A stretch of DNA of 64,000 nucleotides from Escherichia phage QL01, in sequence record NC_028847.1. One strand, written 5' to 3'. A program made the position numbers and the translations under genes. The first letter of the stretch is position 1. Each line of letters opens with the position of its first letter. Positions 3,946 through 52,085 of the stretch are shown piece after piece. A model generated the notes under the pieces. The model was not told where the DNA came from, did no database searches, and saw only the letters and a program-made list of their open reading frames with translations.

Positions 3946-5520
3946 ATGGCAAACTTTAATACAATATTAAGTTTTCTTAAGCCATGGGCTAATGAAGACG
4001 AAAAAGAATATAAACAACAAATTAATAACAATTTAGAGTCTGTCACCGCACCTAAGCTTGATGATGGCGCTCGCGAAATTGAGACACAAGAGCAAAATAT
4101 TCCTTATAATGCTCTTATGCAACAGATGTTTGGTAGTAATGAGCCTGAAGTTAAAAATACCAGGGAACTTATTGATACCTACCGTAATTTAATGAACAAC
4201 TATGAAGTCGACAACGCCGTACAGGAAATTGTGTCTGACGCTATTGTCTATGAGGATGATAAAGAAGTAGTTGCATTGAATTTAGACGGGACAGAATTTA
4301 GTCAAGCAATTAAAGATAAAATCTTGGCCGAATTCAGTGAAGTTTTAAACCTTTTAAATTTCCAACGTAAAGGTACTGACCATTTCCAACGCTGGTATGT
4401 AGACTCAAGAATTTTCTTTCATAAAATTATAAACCCTAAAAAAATGAAAGATGGCGTACAAGAGCTTCGTCGCTTAGACCCACGCCAAGTCCAATATATT
4501 CGTGAAATCGTTACACGTATGGAAGATGGCGTTAAAGTTGTAGACGGATATCGCGAGTTTTTCGTTTATGATACAGGCCATGAAAGTTATTGCGCTGATG
4601 GACGCATTTATTCAGCCGGGACTAAAGTTAAAATTCCTCGTGCTGCAGTGGTTTATGCTCATTCTGGATTATTAGATTGTTGTGGTAAAAACATCATTGG
4701 CTATTTGCAACGTGCTATTAAGCCTGCAAACCAGCTTAAATTGATGGAAGACGCAATGGTCATCTACCGTATTACACGTGCTCCTGACCGTCGTGTGTTT
4801 TATATCGATACAGGTAATATGCCTTCACGTAAGGCTGCAGCACAAATGCAACATATCATGAACACGATGAAAAACCGTGTGGTGTATGATGCTTCGACAG
4901 GTAAAATTAAAAACCAACAACACAATATGTCCATGACTGAAGACTATTGGTTGCAACGTCGTGATGGTAAAGCGGTAACAGAAGTTGATACAATGCCAGG
5001 TGCTACTGGTATGAGTGATATGGATGACGTTCTTTATTTCCGCACAGCACTTTACCGTGCGTTGCGTGTTCCTGAATCACGTATCCCTAGCGAGTCTAAT
5101 TCTGGTGTTATGTTTGATGCCGGTACAGCAATCACTCGTGACGAATTAAAATTCTCTAAATGGATTCGTCAACTACAAAACAAATTTGAAGAAATTTTCC
5201 TAGACCCGTTAAAAACAAACCTCATTCTTAAAAAGATTATTACAGAAGATGAGTGGGAAAAGGAAATAAATAATATTAAAGTTACGTTTAACCGTGATAG
5301 CTATTTCAGTGAAATGAAAGATGCTGAAATCATGGAACGCAGAATCAATATGCTAACGATGGCTGAACCATTTATTGGTAAGTATATTTCACATCAAACG
5401 GCTATGAAAGATTTCCTCCAAATGACCGACGAAGAAATTAATCAAGAAGCTAAGCAAATTGAAGAAGAGTCTAAAGAGGCTCGTTTCCAAAACCCAGATG
5501 AAGAAGAAGAGGATTTCTAA
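3946..5520 (+). CDS. 20: portal vertex protein gp20
   Basis: 524 aa, same length as T4 gp20 as recalled; position after gene 19. Confidence 0.93.
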
Positions 5521-7695: not shown

Positions 7696-9255
7696 ATGAA
7701 AAAGAATGCATTAGTTCAAAAATGGTCCGCTCTGCTGGAAAACGAAGCCCTTCCTGAAATCGTGGGTGCTTCTAAACAAGCTATCATCGCTAAAATTTTC
7801 GAAAACCAGGAACAAGACATCCTGACTGCTCCGGAATACCGTGATGAAAAAATCTCTGAAGCATTTGGTTCTTTCCTGACCGAAGCTGAAATTGGTGGTG
7901 ACCACGGTTATGATGCTACCAATATCGCAGCTGGCCAGACTTCTGGTGCTGTAACTCAGATTGGGCCGGCAGTAATGGGTATGGTTCGTCGTGCTATTCC
8001 TCATCTGATTGCTTTTGATATTTGTGGTGTTCAGCCTCTGAATAACCCTACCGGCCAGGTATTTGCCCTTCGTGCAGTTTATGGTAAAGACCCTATCGCT
8101 TCTGGCGCTAAAGAAGCTTTCCATCCGATGTATTCTCCAGACGCTATGTTCTCTGGTCAGGGTGCTGCTGAAACTTTCGAAGCACTGGCTGCAAGCAAAG
8201 TTCTGGAAGTTGGTAAAATTTATTCTCACTTCTTCGAAGCTACCGGTGCTGCACACTTCCAGGCTGTCGAAGCCGTAACCGTTGATGCTGCTGCTACTGA
8301 TGCCGCTAAACTGGATGCTGCTGTTACCGCTTTGATTGAAGCTGGTAAGTTGGCTGAATTGGCTGAAGGTATGGCTACTTCTATCGCTGAACTTCAGGAA
8401 GGCTTTAACGGTTCTACCGATAACCCGTGGAACGAAATGGGCTTCCGCATCGACAAACAAGTTATCGAAGCTAAATCCCGTCAGCTGAAAGCAAGCTACT
8501 CTATCGAACTGGCACAGGACCTTCGTGCAGTACACGGTATGGATGCAGATGCTGAACTGTCCGGTATCCTTGCTACCGAAATTATGCTCGAAATCAACCG
8601 TGAAGTTATCGATTGGATTAACTACTCTGCACAGGTTGGTAAATCTGGTATGACCAACACCGTTGGCGCTAAAGCTGGTGTGTTTGACTTCCAGGACCCG
8701 ATTGATATCCGTGGTGCTCGTTGGGCCGGTGAGAGCTTTAAAGCCCTTCTGTTCCAGATTGATAAAGAAGCAGCCGAAATCGCTCGTCAGACCGGTCGTG
8801 GTGCTGGTAACTTCATCATCGCTTCCCGTAACGTAGTTAACGTACTGGCTGCAGTTGATACTTCTGTAAGTTATGCAGCTCAAGGTCTGGGTCAAGGTTT
8901 CAACGTTGACACAACCAAAGCAGTATTTGCCGGTGTTCTTGGTGGTAAATATCGCGTTTACATCGACCAGTATGCACGTTCCGATTACTTCACCATCGGT
9001 TATAAAGGCGCTAACGAAATGGACGCAGGTATCTACTATGCTCCGTACGTTGCACTGACCCCGCTGCGTGGTTCCGATCCGAAGAACTTCCAACCGGTAA
9101 TGGGCTTCAAAACTCGTTACGGTATCGGTATCAACCCGTTCGCTGACCCTGCTGCTCAGGCTCCTACCAAACGTATCCAGAATGGTATGCCTGACATCGT
9201 TAACAGCCTTGGTCTGAATGGTTACTTCCGTCGCGTATATGTTAAAGGTATCTAA
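7696..9255 (+). CDS. 23: major capsid protein gp23
   Basis: 519 aa; long stretches identical to T4 gp23 (SKQAIIAKIFENQE, AEIGGDHGY, TSGAVTQIGPAVMGMVRRAIP, YYAPYVALTPLRGSDPKNFQPVMGFKTRYGIGINPFA). Confidence 0.98.
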   Translation: MKKNALVQKWSALLENEALPEIVGASKQAIIAKIFENQEQDILTAPEYRDEKISEAFGSFLTEAEIGGDHGYDATNIAAGQTSGAVTQIGPAVMGMVRRAIPHLIAFDICGVQPLNNPTGQVFALRAVYGKDPIASGAKEAFHPMYSPDAMFSGQGAAETFEALAASKVLEVGKIYSHFFEATGAAHFQAVEAVTVDAAATDAAKLDAAVTALIEAGKLAELAEGMATSIAELQEGFNGSTDNPWNEMGFRIDKQVIEAKSRQLKASYSIELAQDLRAVHGMDADAELSGILATEIMLEINREVIDWINYSAQVGKSGMTNTVGAKAGVFDFQDPIDIRGARWAGESFKALLFQIDKEAAEIARQTGRGAGNFIIASRNVVNVLAAVDTSVSYAAQGLGQGFNVDTTKAVFAGVLGGKYRVYIDQYARSDYFTIGYKGANEMDAGIYYAPYVALTPLRGSDPKNFQPVMGFKTRYGIGINPFADPAAQAPTKRIQNGMPDIVNSLGLNGYFRRVYVKGI

Positions 9256-9270
9256 GATATAACCTTATTA

Positions 9271-9290
9271 TGGGAGACTTCGGTCTCCCA
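9271..9290. terminator. bidirectional UUCG-tetraloop hairpin terminator after gene 23 (UGGGAGAC-UUCG-GUCUCCCA)
   Basis: Perfect palindrome followed by T-rich tract; lies between convergent gene 23 and the minus-strand small ORF. Confidence 0.65.
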
Positions 9291-9304
9291 TTCTTGTTTC
9301 TGTA

Positions 9305-9571
9305 TTATGCAATCTTAACTCGGCGGTTGATGATATCACGGAAGTCAATACGATTTTCTTGGATTTTCAGCCAGTTACCAGATTTGTCTTTGGTATGGGT
9401 AGAGTATTCACCGTTCCACCAGAAGTCGGTAGCATAAGCCATGGCTTCGTATTTCTTAACTAAGGCATTCACTGCATTACCATTAGGATTGTTACCGAAT
9501 TTTTCTACCAGAGCTTTGATGTCTTTATCAAGAGCGGAAAGAGTAGTACGAATAAAGTTTAACTTGTTCAT
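9305..9571 (-). CDS. hypothetical protein (early-promoter small ORF antisense to capsid genes)
   Basis: ORF with GAGGAG SD before internal ATG (MNKLNFIRTT...); preceded on minus strand by GTTTAC-N18-TACTAT promoter; no recognisable family. Confidence 0.55.
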   Translation of the reverse strand: MNKLNFIRTTLSALDKDIKALVEKFGNNPNGNAVNALVKKYEAMAYATDFWWNGEYSTHTKDKSGNWLKIQENRIDFRDIINRRVKIA

Positions 9572-9600
9572 TTTTAATCTCCTCATGTTTTGATAGGTCT

Positions 9601-9630
9601 ATAGTAACATGTGAGAATCTTGCTGTAAAC
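9601..9630 (-). promoter_or_regulatory. early promoter GTTTAC-N18-TACTAT (drives 9305..9571 ORF)
   Basis: Motif on minus strand; same extended TACTATAGACCTATCAA pattern as other early promoters in window. Confidence 0.55.
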
Positions 9631-9636
9631 AACTTT

Positions 9637-9644
9637 TATAAATA
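9637..9644 (+). promoter_or_regulatory. late promoter TATAAATA (gene 24)
   Basis: Consensus about 30 bp upstream of gene 24 ATG. Confidence 0.6.
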
Positions 9645-9672
9645 AACATATACCCTCAATAAGGAAAGCGCA

Positions 9673-10956
9673 ATGGCAAAGATTAACGAATTACTGCGCG
9701 AGTCAACAACTACTTCCAGCAACTCATTGGGTCGCCCTAATCTTGTTGCTTTGACCCGTGCTACAACCAAATTGATTTACCGTGATATTATCGCCGAACA
9801 ACGTACTAGCCAGCCTATTGCTGCACTGTATGGTGTCAAATATCTTACCCCTGATAATGAATTTAGTTTCCAGACAGGTGCCTCTTATGGTGGTGAAGTT
9901 GGTTCTAAAGACCGTGAAACTATCCCAGAACTCACAGATAAGGCCCAGGCGATTGCTCAGGGTGAATATTTCAAGTACCAGAATGTGGTTTATAAGGCTC
10001 TTAAAGCAAGCCCACTCGCGTCCACTAGCGCCACAGAATTGGCTGAGGCTCTTCAAGAAGGTTTAGTGTCATTAACATGTCGTCTGGTTCCTGATGCTGC
10101 CCATACCACTAAATTTGAAGCGAGTGATGTAGAAATCTCTGATGCTGTATTCCAGGTTAATAAATGGAATGCTCCGGTTAAGACCCGTAAATTGAAGACG
10201 GCTTTGACTGTAGAATTAGCGCAGGATATGGAATCAAATGGCTTTGACGCGCCGGCGTTCTTAGAAGACCTCTTGGCTACAGTAATGGCAGATGAAATTA
10301 ATAAAGACGTTCTGCAATCTCTAATAACCGTATCCAAACGTTATAAAGTTACTGGTGTATCTGATAACGGCATCATCGATTTGTCTTATGACAGTGCTCC
10401 TGAATCTGCACGTAAACTTTATGAACTCGTTTGTGAGATGAATTCTGAAATCCAGAAAACTACTTCTTATTCTGGCACGTTTGTTGTGGCTTCAAGTCGT
10501 GTGGCTGCAATGCTTGCAGGTTCTGGCTGGTTAAAACATAAACCCGAAGATAATAATTGGCTTCCGGAAACTGCATACGGATATTTGTTGAATGGGCTGC
10601 CTCTGTTTTGTGACGTTAACAGTCCATTAGATTATGTTACCGTTGGTGTTAAAGAGAATTACGGCGGTAATGAAGTTGTCGGTTCTATTTTCTACGCTCC
10701 CTATACCGAAGGCTTAGATTTAGATGACCAAGAACACGTCGGTGCTTATAAGGTTATTGTTGACCCGGATTCATTACAACCTTCTATTTCTCTGATGGTT
10801 CGTTATGCACTATCAGCTAACCCGTACACCGTGGCTAAAGACGATAAAGAAGCTCGTGTTATCGATGCAACCAATATGGATTTAATGGCTGGGCAGAGCA
10901 ATATGTCTTATCTGGTTGGCGTTAAACTTCCGGCAATTATTTACGAGGCTGATTAA
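9673..10956 (+). CDS. 24: capsid vertex protein gp24
   Basis: 427 aa; N-terminus MAKINELLRESTTT...GRPNLVALTRATTKLIY matches T4 gp24. Confidence 0.96.
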   Translation: MAKINELLRESTTTSSNSLGRPNLVALTRATTKLIYRDIIAEQRTSQPIAALYGVKYLTPDNEFSFQTGASYGGEVGSKDRETIPELTDKAQAIAQGEYFKYQNVVYKALKASPLASTSATELAEALQEGLVSLTCRLVPDAAHTTKFEASDVEISDAVFQVNKWNAPVKTRKLKTALTVELAQDMESNGFDAPAFLEDLLATVMADEINKDVLQSLITVSKRYKVTGVSDNGIIDLSYDSAPESARKLYELVCEMNSEIQKTTSYSGTFVVASSRVAAMLAGSGWLKHKPEDNNWLPETAYGYLLNGLPLFCDVNSPLDYVTVGVKENYGGNEVVGSIFYAPYTEGLDLDDQEHVGAYKVIVDPDSLQPSISLMVRYALSANPYTVAKDDKEARVIDATNMDLMAGQSNMSYLVGVKLPAIIYEAD

Positions 10957-12236
10957 TGTCTAAGATTGTAGACCTAATTAAAGAATCCACATTGACGGCT
11001 GCCAGCTCGGTTGGCCGTCCTGCTCTTCTTTCATACACCCAAGCAACTAATAAACGAATCTTTAAAGCCCTAGTTGCTGAACAAAAAACAAATCAACCGG
11101 TTGCTGCTCTGTATGGGGTACGTGTACTGAATCCTGACGACAAAATGACTTATCTTGGTGGAGCAACATTTGCGGGCCAGATTGGTATGACGGAACGTGA
11201 AAATATTCCAGAATTTACTGATTCATCTACAGCTTATGCGGTCGGTGATATGTTCCAGTTTGAAAGCGTAGTGTTTAAAGTTCTAGAAGCATCTCCTTTC
11301 GCCGGAACCACAGAAACCAACCTCAGCGAAGTTATTTCTGAAGCAGTGGCAGCCGGCCATATCCGTATGGTGTCGGATGCTGCTATTACTTCTAAATTTG
11401 AACAGGGCCATCCTGAAATTGCTGAAACCGGATTCCGTATCGACAAATGGCAATCTGAAGTTAAATCACGTAAACTGAAAACTTCATTGACAGTCGAATT
11501 AGCCCAAGACCTAGAATCTAACGGGTTTAATGCTCCTAATTTCGTTGAAAATCTGCTAGGCATTCAAATGGCAGAAGAAATTAATAAGGATGTATTACAG
11601 TCATTAATTACCGTGAGCTCTCGTTTTAAAGTCCAGGGTGTTTCTGAAAAGGGTGTATTAGACCTTACCAACCCTCGCTACGATAATGCCCAGGACCGTG
11701 CTCGCACATTATATTATTATATGTGTGAGATGAACTCTGCCGTCCAACGACAGACTTCTTTTGCCGGGACTTATGCAGTAGCTAGTTCTCGTTGTGCTGC
11801 TATTCTCGCCGCCTCTGGTTGGGTTGAGAAAAAGGAAGACCAGGACGAATTGGCTTATGGTATATTAAAGAATGGCCTACCACTTTATGCTGATATGAAT
11901 AGTCCATGTGATTATGTTATTGTTGGTGTAAATGCCCAGATGGGTGAAGGACAGACGGTCGCATCTTTATATTATGCGCCTTATACGGAAGGTTTGAATG
12001 TGGTTGACGAAGAAGGTGATACTTCAGTTGGTGAATTTAAGGTTATTGTTGACCCGGAAAGCTTACAACCTACAGTAGCATTGCTTGCTCGTTATGCATT
12101 GACTGCAAACCCTTATACCGTCGCTAAGGACGATAAAGAAGCCCGCATTATTGATGGTTCTGATATGGACAAAATGGCTAATCAAAGTCAATTGAGTTCT
12201 TATCTCGGCGTAAAATTACCGCCTTTAGAAAAATAA
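10956..12236 (+). CDS. capsid vertex protein gp24 paralog (divergent tandem copy)
   Basis: 426 aa, collinear similarity to the upstream gp24 (KSRKLKT.LTVELAQD.ESNGF.AP.F.E.LL, VLQSLITVS.R.KV.GVS, YYAPYTEGL, YAL.ANPYTVAKDDKEAR.ID) but clearly diverged; ATG overlaps gp24 stop. Confidence 0.9.
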   Translation: MSKIVDLIKESTLTAASSVGRPALLSYTQATNKRIFKALVAEQKTNQPVAALYGVRVLNPDDKMTYLGGATFAGQIGMTERENIPEFTDSSTAYAVGDMFQFESVVFKVLEASPFAGTTETNLSEVISEAVAAGHIRMVSDAAITSKFEQGHPEIAETGFRIDKWQSEVKSRKLKTSLTVELAQDLESNGFNAPNFVENLLGIQMAEEINKDVLQSLITVSSRFKVQGVSEKGVLDLTNPRYDNAQDRARTLYYYMCEMNSAVQRQTSFAGTYAVASSRCAAILAASGWVEKKEDQDELAYGILKNGLPLYADMNSPCDYVIVGVNAQMGEGQTVASLYYAPYTEGLNVVDEEGDTSVGEFKVIVDPESLQPTVALLARYALTANPYTVAKDDKEARIIDGSDMDKMANQSQLSSYLGVKLPPLEK

Positions 12237-52056: not shown

Positions 52057-52085
52057 ATAGTATCATGTTTAAAGGCGTTGTAAAC
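52057..52085 (-). promoter_or_regulatory. early promoter GTTTAC-N17-TACTAT
   Basis: Motif upstream of 51637..52026 ORF. Confidence 0.55.

Follow-up and report, generated by a model that had tools for sequence, protein, structure and literature searches.

A small antisense early-type transcription unit between capsid genes 23 and 24 of Escherichia phage QL01 and related T-even coliphages

Why should a short gene with an early-type promoter lie, on the opposite strand, between two late capsid genes of a T-even coliphage? We addressed this question for the spacer separating genes 23 and 24 within a 64,000-nucleotide stretch of Escherichia phage QL01 (NC_028847.1), hereafter the window, which represents a JS98/Bp7-like T-even coliphage (Dhakavirus). 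The upstream flank of the slot is gene 23 (positions 7696 to 9255, plus strand), a 519-aa ORF for the major capsid protein, whose region is 94-99.9% identical at the nucleotide level to JS98, Bp7 and vB_EcoM_FB, where it is annotated as the major head protein. The downstream flank is gene 24a (9673 to 10956, plus strand), encoding the capsid vertex protein and directly followed by its paralog 24b (10956 to 12236), to which it is 56% identical. The short spacer between these late genes holds, in antisense orientation, a self-contained transcription unit comprising an 88-aa ORF, the T4-type sigma-70 promoter and strong ribosome-binding site in front of it, and a stem-loop at its 3' end. We regard it, with high confidence, as a real, early-type and mobile accessory unit.

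The minus-strand 88-aa ORF that the initial annotation had placed between the capsid genes is present at 9305-9571 (MNKLNFIRTT...RRVKIA, with the stop codon at 9305-9307), and the GAGGAG Shine-Dalgarno sequence named there lies at 9579-9584, 7 nt upstream of the ATG. An alternative 93-aa reading of the same frame is possible from the ATG at 9586; the 88-aa start is conserved in all homologs, and HX01 carries an in-frame stop just upstream of it. A purine-rich block at the Shine-Dalgarno position is likewise conserved in all homologous loci. The dN/dS ratio between the window and VR5 is 0.055 (18 synonymous and 5 non-synonymous changes), and deeper pairs gave 0.1-0.3, for an overall range of 0.05-0.3. 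Purifying selection acts on the ORF, which is a genuine protein-coding gene. This selection, together with the conserved frame and a confident predicted fold, speaks against the degraded fragment of a known gene that the initial annotation had allowed for.

The GTTTAC-N18-TACTAT early-type promoter sequence described earlier was also recovered on the minus strand (9601..9630), with the -35 box at 9630-9625, an 18-nt spacer and the -10 box at 9606-9601. T4 early promoters reportedly combine GTTTAC, a 17-19 nt spacer and TAnnnT, often with a TG and an A/T-rich upstream sequence. All of these sequence features occur at this site, including a TG at 9609-9608, one base upstream of the -10 box, and the A/T-rich TATTTATAAAAGTT upstream of the promoter; the predicted transcription start lies near 9594. 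The pattern GTTTAC-N17-19-TAnnnT was found at 13 sites in the window, ten of them on the minus strand (nine besides the promoter of the ORF), against 3.1 +/- 1.8 sites expected from first-order Markov shuffles. A phylogenetic footprint spanning loci from Dhakavirus, Gaprivervirus, Mosigvirus, metagenome contigs and the T4 segD upstream region revealed conservation of the -35 box, the TGn, the -10 box, the Shine-Dalgarno sequence and AAAATGAA, with a scrambled spacer; the promoter elements are conserved across genera. Back to back with it stands the late promoter of gene 24a, TATAAATA (9637-9644, plus strand), which had been correctly named as a flank of the unit. This late promoter forms the A/T-rich upstream region of the early promoter, is separated by 7 nt from the opposite-strand -35 box, and is invariant across all aligned loci, including slots without the ORF.

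At the other end of the ORF, the G+C-rich hairpin ATGGGAGAC-TTCG-GTCTCCCAT (9270-9291) folds on both strands, at -15.2 kcal/mol on the plus strand (z -4.2) and -14.8 kcal/mol on the minus strand. The tails that follow it are TCTTGTTTCT on the plus strand and AATAAGGTTA on the minus strand; a T-run (9292-9301) is present on the plus strand only, where the hairpin is the intrinsic terminator of gene 23, and the terminator scan reports that strand only. The initial description of a bidirectional terminator is therefore half supported, holding for the fold on both strands and failing for the T-run, which serves the gene 23 strand alone. On the minus strand, the hairpin is only the 3' stem-loop of the small ORF's transcript, without a U-run. 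The same stem occurs in Mosigvirus and in the unit found in phage ZJUN4 (see below).

Rather than being peculiar to one genome, the ORF is the regular occupant of the slot, in the same position and orientation, in the genera Dhakavirus, Gaprivervirus and Mosigvirus. Its equivalents include JS98 orf173, VR7 ORF190c, HX01 gp293 and RB69ORF188c/189c, and the QL01 protein is identical to that of vB_EcoM-E33. An intact-frame homolog was found in 232 phage records, at 33-100% identity, and in more than 200 phage genomes every source annotates the gene as a hypothetical protein. Four states of the slot occur among related phages, namely empty, ORF, ORF plus segD, and segD alone, which bears out the earlier suspicion of a recombination-prone site. 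The slot is empty in most Tequatrovirus and in Jiaodavirus and Kanagawavirus; in AdolfPortmann (Tequatrovirus), KP01 (Jiaodavirus) and Q7622 (Kanagawavirus), the gap between genes 23 and 24 measures 81-90 bp, with nothing between them. The ORF is present without segD in JS98, VR5, VR7, HX01 and the window, as it is in most ORF carriers.

Comparison of the unit with its flanking genes points to movement independent of the capsid module. In the Tequatrovirus ZJUN4, the intergenic unit is 94.5% identical to that of the window and the flanking capsid genes are 98.7% T4-like, a mosaic in which a unit of roughly 380 bp has moved into a Tequatrovirus backbone. The capsid genes of contig L010 are 92-93% identical to those of the window, and its ORF allele is of the Mosigvirus type (61% identical to that of HX01 and 27% to that of the window). 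When HX01 is compared with the window, identity is 33% for the ORF, 84% for gp23 and 70% for gp24. By these alignments, ORF alleles have been swapped and do not follow the phylogeny of the capsid genes. RB69 and phage mogra carry frameshifted copies of the gene. Independently of the capsid genes on either side, the unit has been gained, lost, exchanged and turned into a pseudogene. Distant homologs extend beyond this group: the Vequintavirinae phage ABPH49 and a related contig carry them within arrays of small same-strand genes, and a siphovirus contig carries one between a gpJ-like tail tip gene and replication genes. The siphovirus copy has a promoter-like site upstream and a hairpin downstream. 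In the Vequintavirinae-like contig L008, a hairpin follows the homolog and the promoter match is at chance level only; around the ABPH49 gene, no comparable promoter or hairpin was seen.

In T4, as the initial annotation stated, the slot is occupied by segD, on the minus strand and without the ORF. The segD gene encodes a free-standing GIY-YIG homing endonuclease and its coding sequence is unrelated to the ORF, whose product has no Pfam match above noise to a GIY-YIG domain or to any other, in agreement with the earlier claim. The idea that the ORF sits there instead of segD did not hold, since IME08-type Dhakaviruses carry both genes and a homologous promoter precedes T4 segD. In the IME08-type phages, the ORF is followed on the same strand by segD, whose ATG lies 3 nt after the ORF stop, and segD is inserted exactly at the ORF stop codon (KIA-stop to KAA-stop). 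An apparent C-terminal truncation of the ORF product in segD-carrying phages, where tblastn reached residues 1-72 only, was rejected as an artefact of the BLAST default composition-based statistics and low-complexity filtering. The T4 segD locus resembles the ORF unit in occupying the same slot between genes 23 and 24 in the same antisense orientation, and its upstream region is homologous, with ATTTAC-N18-TATTAT, then GGAG, then AAAATGAA. The T4 literature describes segD as the only homing endonuclease gene antisense to its neighbours, reportedly without a promoter of its own, and its orientation has been noted as odd (Edgell 2010). Our comparison suggests that segD landed in the antisense unit and, in T4, inherited its early promoter; the odd orientation would then follow from the entry of segD into a pre-existing antisense unit. 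In published omics data, T4 segD belongs to the 'early RNA, middle protein' class, and the SegD protein was detected (PMC9697503 supplements). An inherited early promoter fits these data on early segD RNA.

The ORF product matches PHROG 6003 with an E-value of 6.8e-50 (residues 1-88 on profile positions 1-88 of 90), and all 13 diverse homologs tested match the same family. The protein is basic, hydrophilic and soluble, of approximately 10 kDa and with a pI of about 9.6. This basic pI is equally compatible with nucleic-acid binding. The AlphaFold2 model (pLDDT 93.9, pTM 0.79) shows a helix-helix-beta hairpin-helix arrangement. The profile and structure-prediction searches that the initial annotation had called for yielded PHROG 6003 as the only significant PHROGs match and a confident fold without a match outside the family. 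Searches of Pfam, NCBIfam and PADLOC with the window protein and diverse members returned nothing above noise; weak matches to DUF5380, JAB, CBASS cyclase, curcumin reductase and Ca_bind_SSO6904 were far below curated cut-offs and were discarded. Searching the PDB by sequence gave no match, Foldseek against the PDB found no solved structure matching the predicted fold (best E at least 2), and BFVD returned models from the protein's own family only. The product has no sequence or structural match to characterised anti-phage defence or counter-defence families. An exhaustive HMM search over 1.84 billion representatives gave ten matches, among which the giant repeat proteins P0022 and P0024 seem spurious, their scores adding up weak matches across repeats, and P0020 is a chimeric contig product. 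A scan of IMG/VR retrieved known isolates only, Rfam had no match in the ORF region, and our literature search found no paper describing the ORF or PHROG 6003. PHROG 6003 is an uncharacterised, phage-only family.

Taken as a whole, the best explanation, and one we hold to be reasonably probable, is a mobile early accessory unit whose product acts on a host factor. Host RNA polymerase would transcribe the gene in the first minutes of infection, as the early RNA of T4 segD behind a homologous promoter leads us to expect. The small, basic, soluble protein would then bind a host macromolecule, either a defence component or a target of host takeover, and this binding would benefit the phage conditionally, on certain E. 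coli strains but not under laboratory conditions. The host-factor step, whether counter-defence or takeover, is drawn by analogy with other small, early, dispensable and horizontally mobile T-even genes, and taken by itself we give it slightly less than an even chance. More tentative still, and in our judgement rather doubtful, is the fuller proposal that PHROG 6003 is a new counter-defence or host-takeover factor with a fold absent from solved structures and has spread, as an early plug-in unit, through three coliphage lineages unrelated to one another. The lineages meant here are Tevenvirinae, Vequintavirinae-like phages and a siphovirus. Were this proposal true, it would account for T4 segD opposing its neighbours and yet being expressed early.

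The alternative that survives best, although an unlikely one, is that the product is a small nucleic-acid-binding protein, a modulator of nucleoid or transcripts like MotB or Ndd, and not a binder of a specific host protein. A pI of 9.5-9.8 in seven of the eight family members examined, invariant polar residues that are Asn, Gln and Lys (K3, N30, N32, N35, Q71), and a size and order of secondary structure that superficially recall HU/IHF would suit such a role. However, structural likeness to HU/IHF is absent (Foldseek E 9.6, TM 0.22), searches for similarity to DNA- or RNA-binding folds found none, the remaining member has a pI of 8.0, and the basic residues are poorly conserved across the family.

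A less probable reading holds that the promoter and its transcript matter more than the protein, with an 'anti-late' RNA restraining early capsid expression or with the unit insulating the late promoter of gene 24. With no U-run behind the hairpin on the minus strand, early transcription would run into gene 23, and the early -35 box and the gene 24 late promoter, 7 nt apart, are conserved together; the promoter has also been kept in T4 despite loss of the ORF. This reading fits poorly with the purifying selection at the protein level and the confident fold, and with the expression of these capsid genes in most Tequatrovirus, Jiaodavirus and Kanagawavirus genomes, where the slot contains no promoter. 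Moreover, homologs in other phage families are not beside capsid genes, and the promoter retained in T4 has an obvious coding cargo in segD.

It is more improbable again that the ORF is functionally tied to SegD, either as a landing pad that bears or borders its target site or as a helper or immunity factor. The exact insertion of segD at the ORF stop codon in IME08-type phages, the homologous promoter in front of T4 segD, and the explanation of segD orientation by entry into a pre-existing antisense unit all invite this idea. Nevertheless, most ORF carriers have no segD, T4 has segD and no ORF, and no endonuclease gene adjoins the homologs in Vequintavirinae or the siphovirus. Free-standing homing endonucleases co-locate at any intergenic site, so that co-location needs no functional link.

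Very improbable, too, is a virion protein, head-associated or internal, that would be packaged along with the DNA and then injected, as T4 IPI, IPII and IPIII are, its location among head genes reflecting this role. The ORF does lie between the major capsid and vertex genes, its product is small and basic (pI 9.6) like the T4 internal proteins, and Mosigvirus-type members, a single sub-clade, weakly match phrog_8765 'internal virion protein' (E 0.0015-0.05). In addition, early promoters and stem-loops likewise border the internal-protein genes of T-even phages (Arbiol 2010, PMC2839356). We tested this identity against IPI, IPII and IPIII and rejected it: neither sequence nor profile comparison revealed any likeness (hhalign probabilities against IPI and IPII are 0.2% and 1.8%, respectively), and the T4 internal proteins fall in other PHROGs. 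The N-terminus lacks the capsid-targeting MKT(Y/F)(Q/K)EF, which ends in the Glu cleavage site of IPII and IPIII, and reads instead M-x-K-x-x-F, with no Glu near position 10. No gp21 cleavage site is conserved either, as the candidate L-x-E motifs vary (LVNK in VR7), and helix 1 is integral to the confidently predicted compact fold. The homologs in a siphovirus and a Vequintavirinae phage, both without T4-type head assembly, and the lack of a late promoter ahead of the ORF on its own strand also argue against a virion role. Finally, a chance reading frame or degraded remnant of a known gene, which the shortness of the ORF, its intergenic position and the 'hypothetical protein' label in all databases might suggest, is already effectively refuted by the dN/dS of 0.05-0.3, a frame kept across 232 records at 33-100% identity, the pLDDT of 93.9, the conserved start context, Shine-Dalgarno sequence and promoter, and the lack of likeness to any larger protein.

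The ORF is not a discovery in itself, because it is already annotated in hundreds of genomes; it adds one to the uncharacterised early orphan genes of T-even phages. What the locus offers is a natural case, cleaner than most, of a promoter, gene and hairpin being swapped as a unit between genera inside an otherwise conserved capsid module. Since all four slot states exist in sequenced isolates, gain, loss and exchange can be compared directly, and an explanation is at hand for the antisense oddity of T4 segD. A protein that is confidently folded, mobile, dispensable and without known relatives is also a reasonable, if not outstanding, candidate for anti-defence screens.

Two kinds of known cassette invite comparison with the mobile early unit described here. 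Like morons (Hendrix et al. 2000, as summarised in Arbiol 2010, PMC2839356), it adds one gene, equipped with a promoter of its own and a stem-loop, between neighbours that adjoin each other in related phages; the gene runs counter to the operon around it, and close relatives may have it or lack it. Unlike them, it resides in a virulent phage, where expression from a prophage does not arise; its stem-loop serves gene 23 as well and is not followed by a U-run when read on the strand of the ORF; and transfer appears to proceed via homologous flanks and not by illegitimate recombination. Its nucleotide composition is not distinct either, the ORF having a G+C content of 39.0% against a window mean of 39.9%, with no foreign signature. 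The initial label of moron-like cargo still stands for an extra, separately promoted gene that is mobile, as in ZJUN4, although its composition is ordinary; a hairpin is present, with the T-run on the gene 23 strand only. The second kind are the PeSL plus ORFan cassettes of RB49 and phi1, with analogous elements at T-even internal-protein loci (Arbiol et al. 2010, PMC2839356). A PeSL is one fused composite repeat of about 50 bp with a -35 of the TTGACA type and the stem-loop within or next to the promoter, whereas in our unit the promoter, with its T4-type GTTTAC, and the stem-loop lie approximately 310 bp apart at opposite ends of the ORF. A few such cassettes have been reported inside virion modules, nearly always with genes of unknown function (Arbiol 2010, PMC2839356). 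In both arrangements, an orphan gene is enclosed by an early promoter of the sigma-70 type and a stem-loop, a layout that combines transcriptional insulation with modular exchange.

The region 8800-10200 of the window is 99.9% identical to Escherichia phage vB_EcoM_FB, 99.7% to Bp7 and about 95% to JS98, all members of the genus Dhakavirus, subfamily Tevenvirinae, and the local gene order is 21, 22, 23, a small ORF on the opposite strand, 24a, 24b and rnlB, again on the opposite strand. In the slot between gene 23 (major capsid protein, 7696-9255, plus strand) and gene 24a (capsid vertex protein, 9673-10956, plus strand), the elements reported in the initial annotation were largely recovered: the 88-aa minus-strand ORF lies at 9305-9571, its GAGGAG Shine-Dalgarno sequence (SD) on the complement of 9579-9584, 7 nt 5' of the ATG, and its early promoter, also on the minus strand, comprises GTTTAC at 9630-9625, an 18-nt spacer and TACTAT at 9606-9601, with a TG one base 5' of the -10 element. 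The proposed gene 24 late promoter is TATAAATA, the T4 late-promoter consensus, on the plus strand at 9637-9644, 28 nt upstream of gene 24a. The claim of a bidirectional terminator did not hold: the hairpin at 9270-9291 folds stably on both strands (-15.2 and -14.8 kcal/mol), but a T-run follows it on the gene 23 strand only, so it is a canonical terminator for gene 23 and a mere 3' stem-loop for the small ORF. The capsid vertex gene itself is duplicated in the window, 24a and 24b (10956-12236, plus strand) being tandem paralogs with 56% protein identity in which the 24a stop overlaps the 24b start; the same duplication appears in the annotations of JS98, IME08 and VR7 and in the sequence of contigs L010 and L018, whereas gene 24 is single in T4, HX01 and RB69.

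The window contains 13 copies of the motif GTTTAC-N17-19-TAnnnT, where first-order Markov shuffles yield 3.1 +/- 1.8; of these sites, ten are on the minus strand, the strand of rnlB and the other leftward genes, and several share the form TG(n)TACTAT. The promoter of the small ORF is no chance match. An alignment of 11 loci, spanning the interval between the initiation codon of gene 24 and the opening codons of the minus-strand gene, revealed a footprint retaining the reverse complement of TATAAATA, the -35 GTTTAC (ATTTAC in T4, GTGTAC in contig L010), the TG-n-TAnnAT -10 element, the purine-rich SD and the start context AAAATGAA. The 18-nt promoter spacer, by comparison, is scrambled among the same loci, which indicates selection on the promoter elements. 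The nine further minus-strand sites with N17-18 spacing (55353, 52085, 51372, 51083, 43848, 42557, 39926, 25465 and 13653), several with TG(n)TACTAT, are likely other early promoters of the phage; those at 52085 and 51372 have nearly the same sequence, GTTTACAA[CT]GCCTTTAAACATGATACTAT.

The small ORF is a regular occupant of this slot in three genera, always in the same orientation: in the Dhakaviruses JS98, JS10, VR5 and IME08 its product is 93-100% identical to that of the window, in the Gaprivervirus phages VR7 and SP18 about 64%, and in the Mosigvirus HX01 about 33%. In most Tequatroviruses the slot is empty, with a spacer of about 83 bp holding only a terminator hairpin and TATAAATA (e.g., Bas44 AdolfPortmann), and it is likewise empty in Jiaodavirus and Kanagawavirus. 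The homing endonuclease gene segD, correctly given in the initial annotation as the T4 occupant and also on the minus strand there, stands alone in T4, PST, ECML-134 and about 50 other records, and both genes are found in IME08, IME341, UP19, F2, JM10 and the LF82 series. The small ORF is thus a partner of segD, arranged in tandem with it in IME08-type phages, and not, as had been proposed, a gene taking its place. The segD insertion in IME08, about 667 bp long, starts exactly at the small-ORF stop codon (KIA* becoming KAA*), and the segD ATG lies 3 nt past that stop on the same strand. An apparent truncation of the small ORF in segD carriers (tblastn coverage 1-72) proved to be an artefact of BLAST default filtering, the ORF being intact there. 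Downstream of 24b, IME08 (L002 7344-8076) carries a plus-strand gene annotated 'tail fiber protein' where the window, JS98 and VR7 have minus-strand rnlB, which is another rearrangement near the slot.

According to a review by Edgell, Gibb and Belfort (2010, PMC2988022), segD is alone among the T4 homing endonuclease genes in running counter to its neighbours, no promoter specific to it could be found, and its transcripts were presumed to be vanishingly scarce. In the supplementary tables of a time-resolved T4 omics study (2022, PMC9697503), segD is classed as 'early-RNA_middle-Protein', with SegD protein intensities rising during infection. The T4 region 5' of segD (L007 2734-2823, corresponding to NC_000866 107233-107322, minus strand) is homologous to the early promoter and leader of the window and aligns with them throughout, reading ATTTAC-N18-TATTAT with TGn, then GGAG and then AAAATGAAA. 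The simplest reading we infer from these alignments is an origin in three steps: an antisense early unit would already have been present in the slot, segD would have inserted behind its ORF to give the IME08 state, and the T4 lineage would then have lost the small ORF, or never received one, leaving segD directly behind the promoter of the unit. The segD promoter and the clean four-state polymorphism of the slot are modest by-products of this analysis.

Sequence comparison shows that the unit is mobile, dispensable and fast-evolving in its behaviour. The Tequatrovirus vB_EcoM_HZ_ZJUN4 carries a Dhakavirus-type small ORF (97% amino-acid identity) within a 381-bp intergenic unit (L013 1660-2041) that includes the Dhakavirus-type hairpin and is 94.5% identical to the window, while the 300 nt next to it in genes 23 and 24 match T4 at 98.7% but the window at only 82% and 70%. 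This is a clear case of inter-genus transfer; one breakpoint lies just beyond the stop of gene 23, the other at the late promoter of gene 24. Its converse is shown by metagenome contig L010, a 173-kb T-even genome (ENA ERZ27245996) whose gp23 and gp24 are 92-93% identical to those of the window and whose slot (4001-4273) holds a Mosigvirus-type allele that shares 61% identity with HX01 and 27% with the window. The window and HX01 share 33% identity in the small ORF, against 84% in gp23 and 70% in gp24. In RB69 (L031 292-532, RB69 109291-109531) two indels relative to HX01 disrupt the ORF, whose pieces are annotated as ORF188c and ORF189c; in phage mogra (L030 1801-2069) it is split into mogra_94 and mogra_95 by one indel, which lies in an A-run and could be a sequencing error. 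These frameshifts show the gene to be dispensable, under laboratory conditions at least. At 39.0%, its G+C content matches the window mean (39.9%), so the gene has not come recently from a source of different base composition.

The small ORF is a real, conserved coding gene, not a degraded fragment. Homologs at 33-100% identity occur in 232 of 50,697 phage records (tblastn), and Nei-Gojobori dN/dS is 0.055 between the window and VR5 (18 synonymous and 5 non-synonymous differences), 0.08-0.10 within Dhakavirus and 0.11-0.31 for deeper pairs. The protein is a full member of PHROG 6003 ('unknown function'), matched over its full length (E 6.8e-50), with M1, K3, F6, G31, N32, N35 and Q71 invariant and L14, L21, N30, A45 and S57 nearly invariant in the family. 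AlphaFold2, with a 16-sequence alignment, predicts a compact fold (pLDDT 93.9, pTM 0.79) of helices at 3-25, 31-48 and 77-87 and a beta hairpin at 52-61 and 67-71. Every public source names it 'hypothetical'; it is an ordinary, previously annotated orphan gene of known kind.

Profile and structure searches, suggested in the initial annotation, returned its own family and no functional relative: Pfam, NCBIfam and PADLOC gave only noise, profile searches of PDB sequences gave no match, Foldseek found nothing in the PDB below E 2, and BFVD returned only a member of this family. When 1.84 billion cluster representatives were searched exhaustively with an HMM, 10 matches were obtained; those judged genuine are 84-90-aa proteins or pieces of such proteins, in phage context where checked; two giant repeat proteins are apparently spurious sums of weak repeat matches. 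P0020 (160 aa, on a 701-bp ENA contig), whose last 35 or so residues correspond to residues 32-64 of the small-ORF product, fused to unrelated molybdopterin-oxidoreductase-like sequence, is almost certainly an assembly chimera, and the JGI name 'NADPH-dependent curcumin reductase CurA' for the 90-aa L010 protein is mistaken, the score being 12.8 bits where the cut-off is 440.

Beyond the T-even phages, homolog P0021 lies on a 35-kb contig within a run of small same-strand genes, including T7 gp0.6-like, DUF7222 and Phage_g100 domains, and shares 61% identity with a protein encoded by the Vequintavirinae phage ABPH49. On the Vequintavirinae-like contig a hairpin follows the ORF, then a strong promoter for the next gene, and the sole promoter-like match 5' of the ORF is weak and no better than chance would give; this copy may have the layout of an independent transcription unit. 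No comparable promoter/hairpin bracket was seen around the ABPH49 homolog. P0023 is encoded on a siphovirus contig, with a lambda-J-like tail tip gene on one side and a DEAD-helicase replication block on the other. Its ORF has a terminator upstream, a TG-extended sigma-70 promoter match and a hairpin downstream, which is the layout of an independent transcription unit.

By analogy, we tentatively place the gene among the known T-even accessory genes concerned with host defences or host takeover, with which it shares a predicted early timing, small size and a non-essential nature; like them, it passes horizontally between unrelated coliphages, is not found in bacterial genomes and has diverged much more rapidly than the genes beside it. 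The gene would be transcribed by unmodified host RNA polymerase right after infection, its leader of about 22 nt with GAGGAG would allow efficient translation, and the compact basic protein might then bind a host macromolecule. All eight PHROG 6003 members examined are hydrophilic and about 10 kDa, and seven have a pI of 9.5-9.8 (8.0 in P0021); a general nucleic-acid-binding role is nonetheless improbable. Somewhat less probable still is a mainly transcript-level role of the unit, antisense or insulating, and a role linked to segD, its tandem neighbour in IME08-type phages, is very unlikely. A virion internal protein is equally hard to credit: a weak phrog_8765 match is confined to one sub-clade, but the protein has neither profile similarity to T4 IPI or IPII nor a capsid-targeting sequence, and the family lacks a conserved gp21 cleavage motif.

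The unit may also be compared with known mobile elements. The description 'moron-like cargo in a recombination-prone slot' stands as regards a moron-like, mobile unit and a plastic slot, though the ORF is a regular resident in its genera: layout and presence/absence pattern resemble morons, and composition and terminator fit more poorly. Although the composite PeSL repeat itself is missing, the unit is similar to the PeSL-plus-ORFan cassettes of RB49 and phi1 and to the early-promoter/stem-loop elements at T-even internal-protein loci (Arbiol et al. 2010, PMC2839356).
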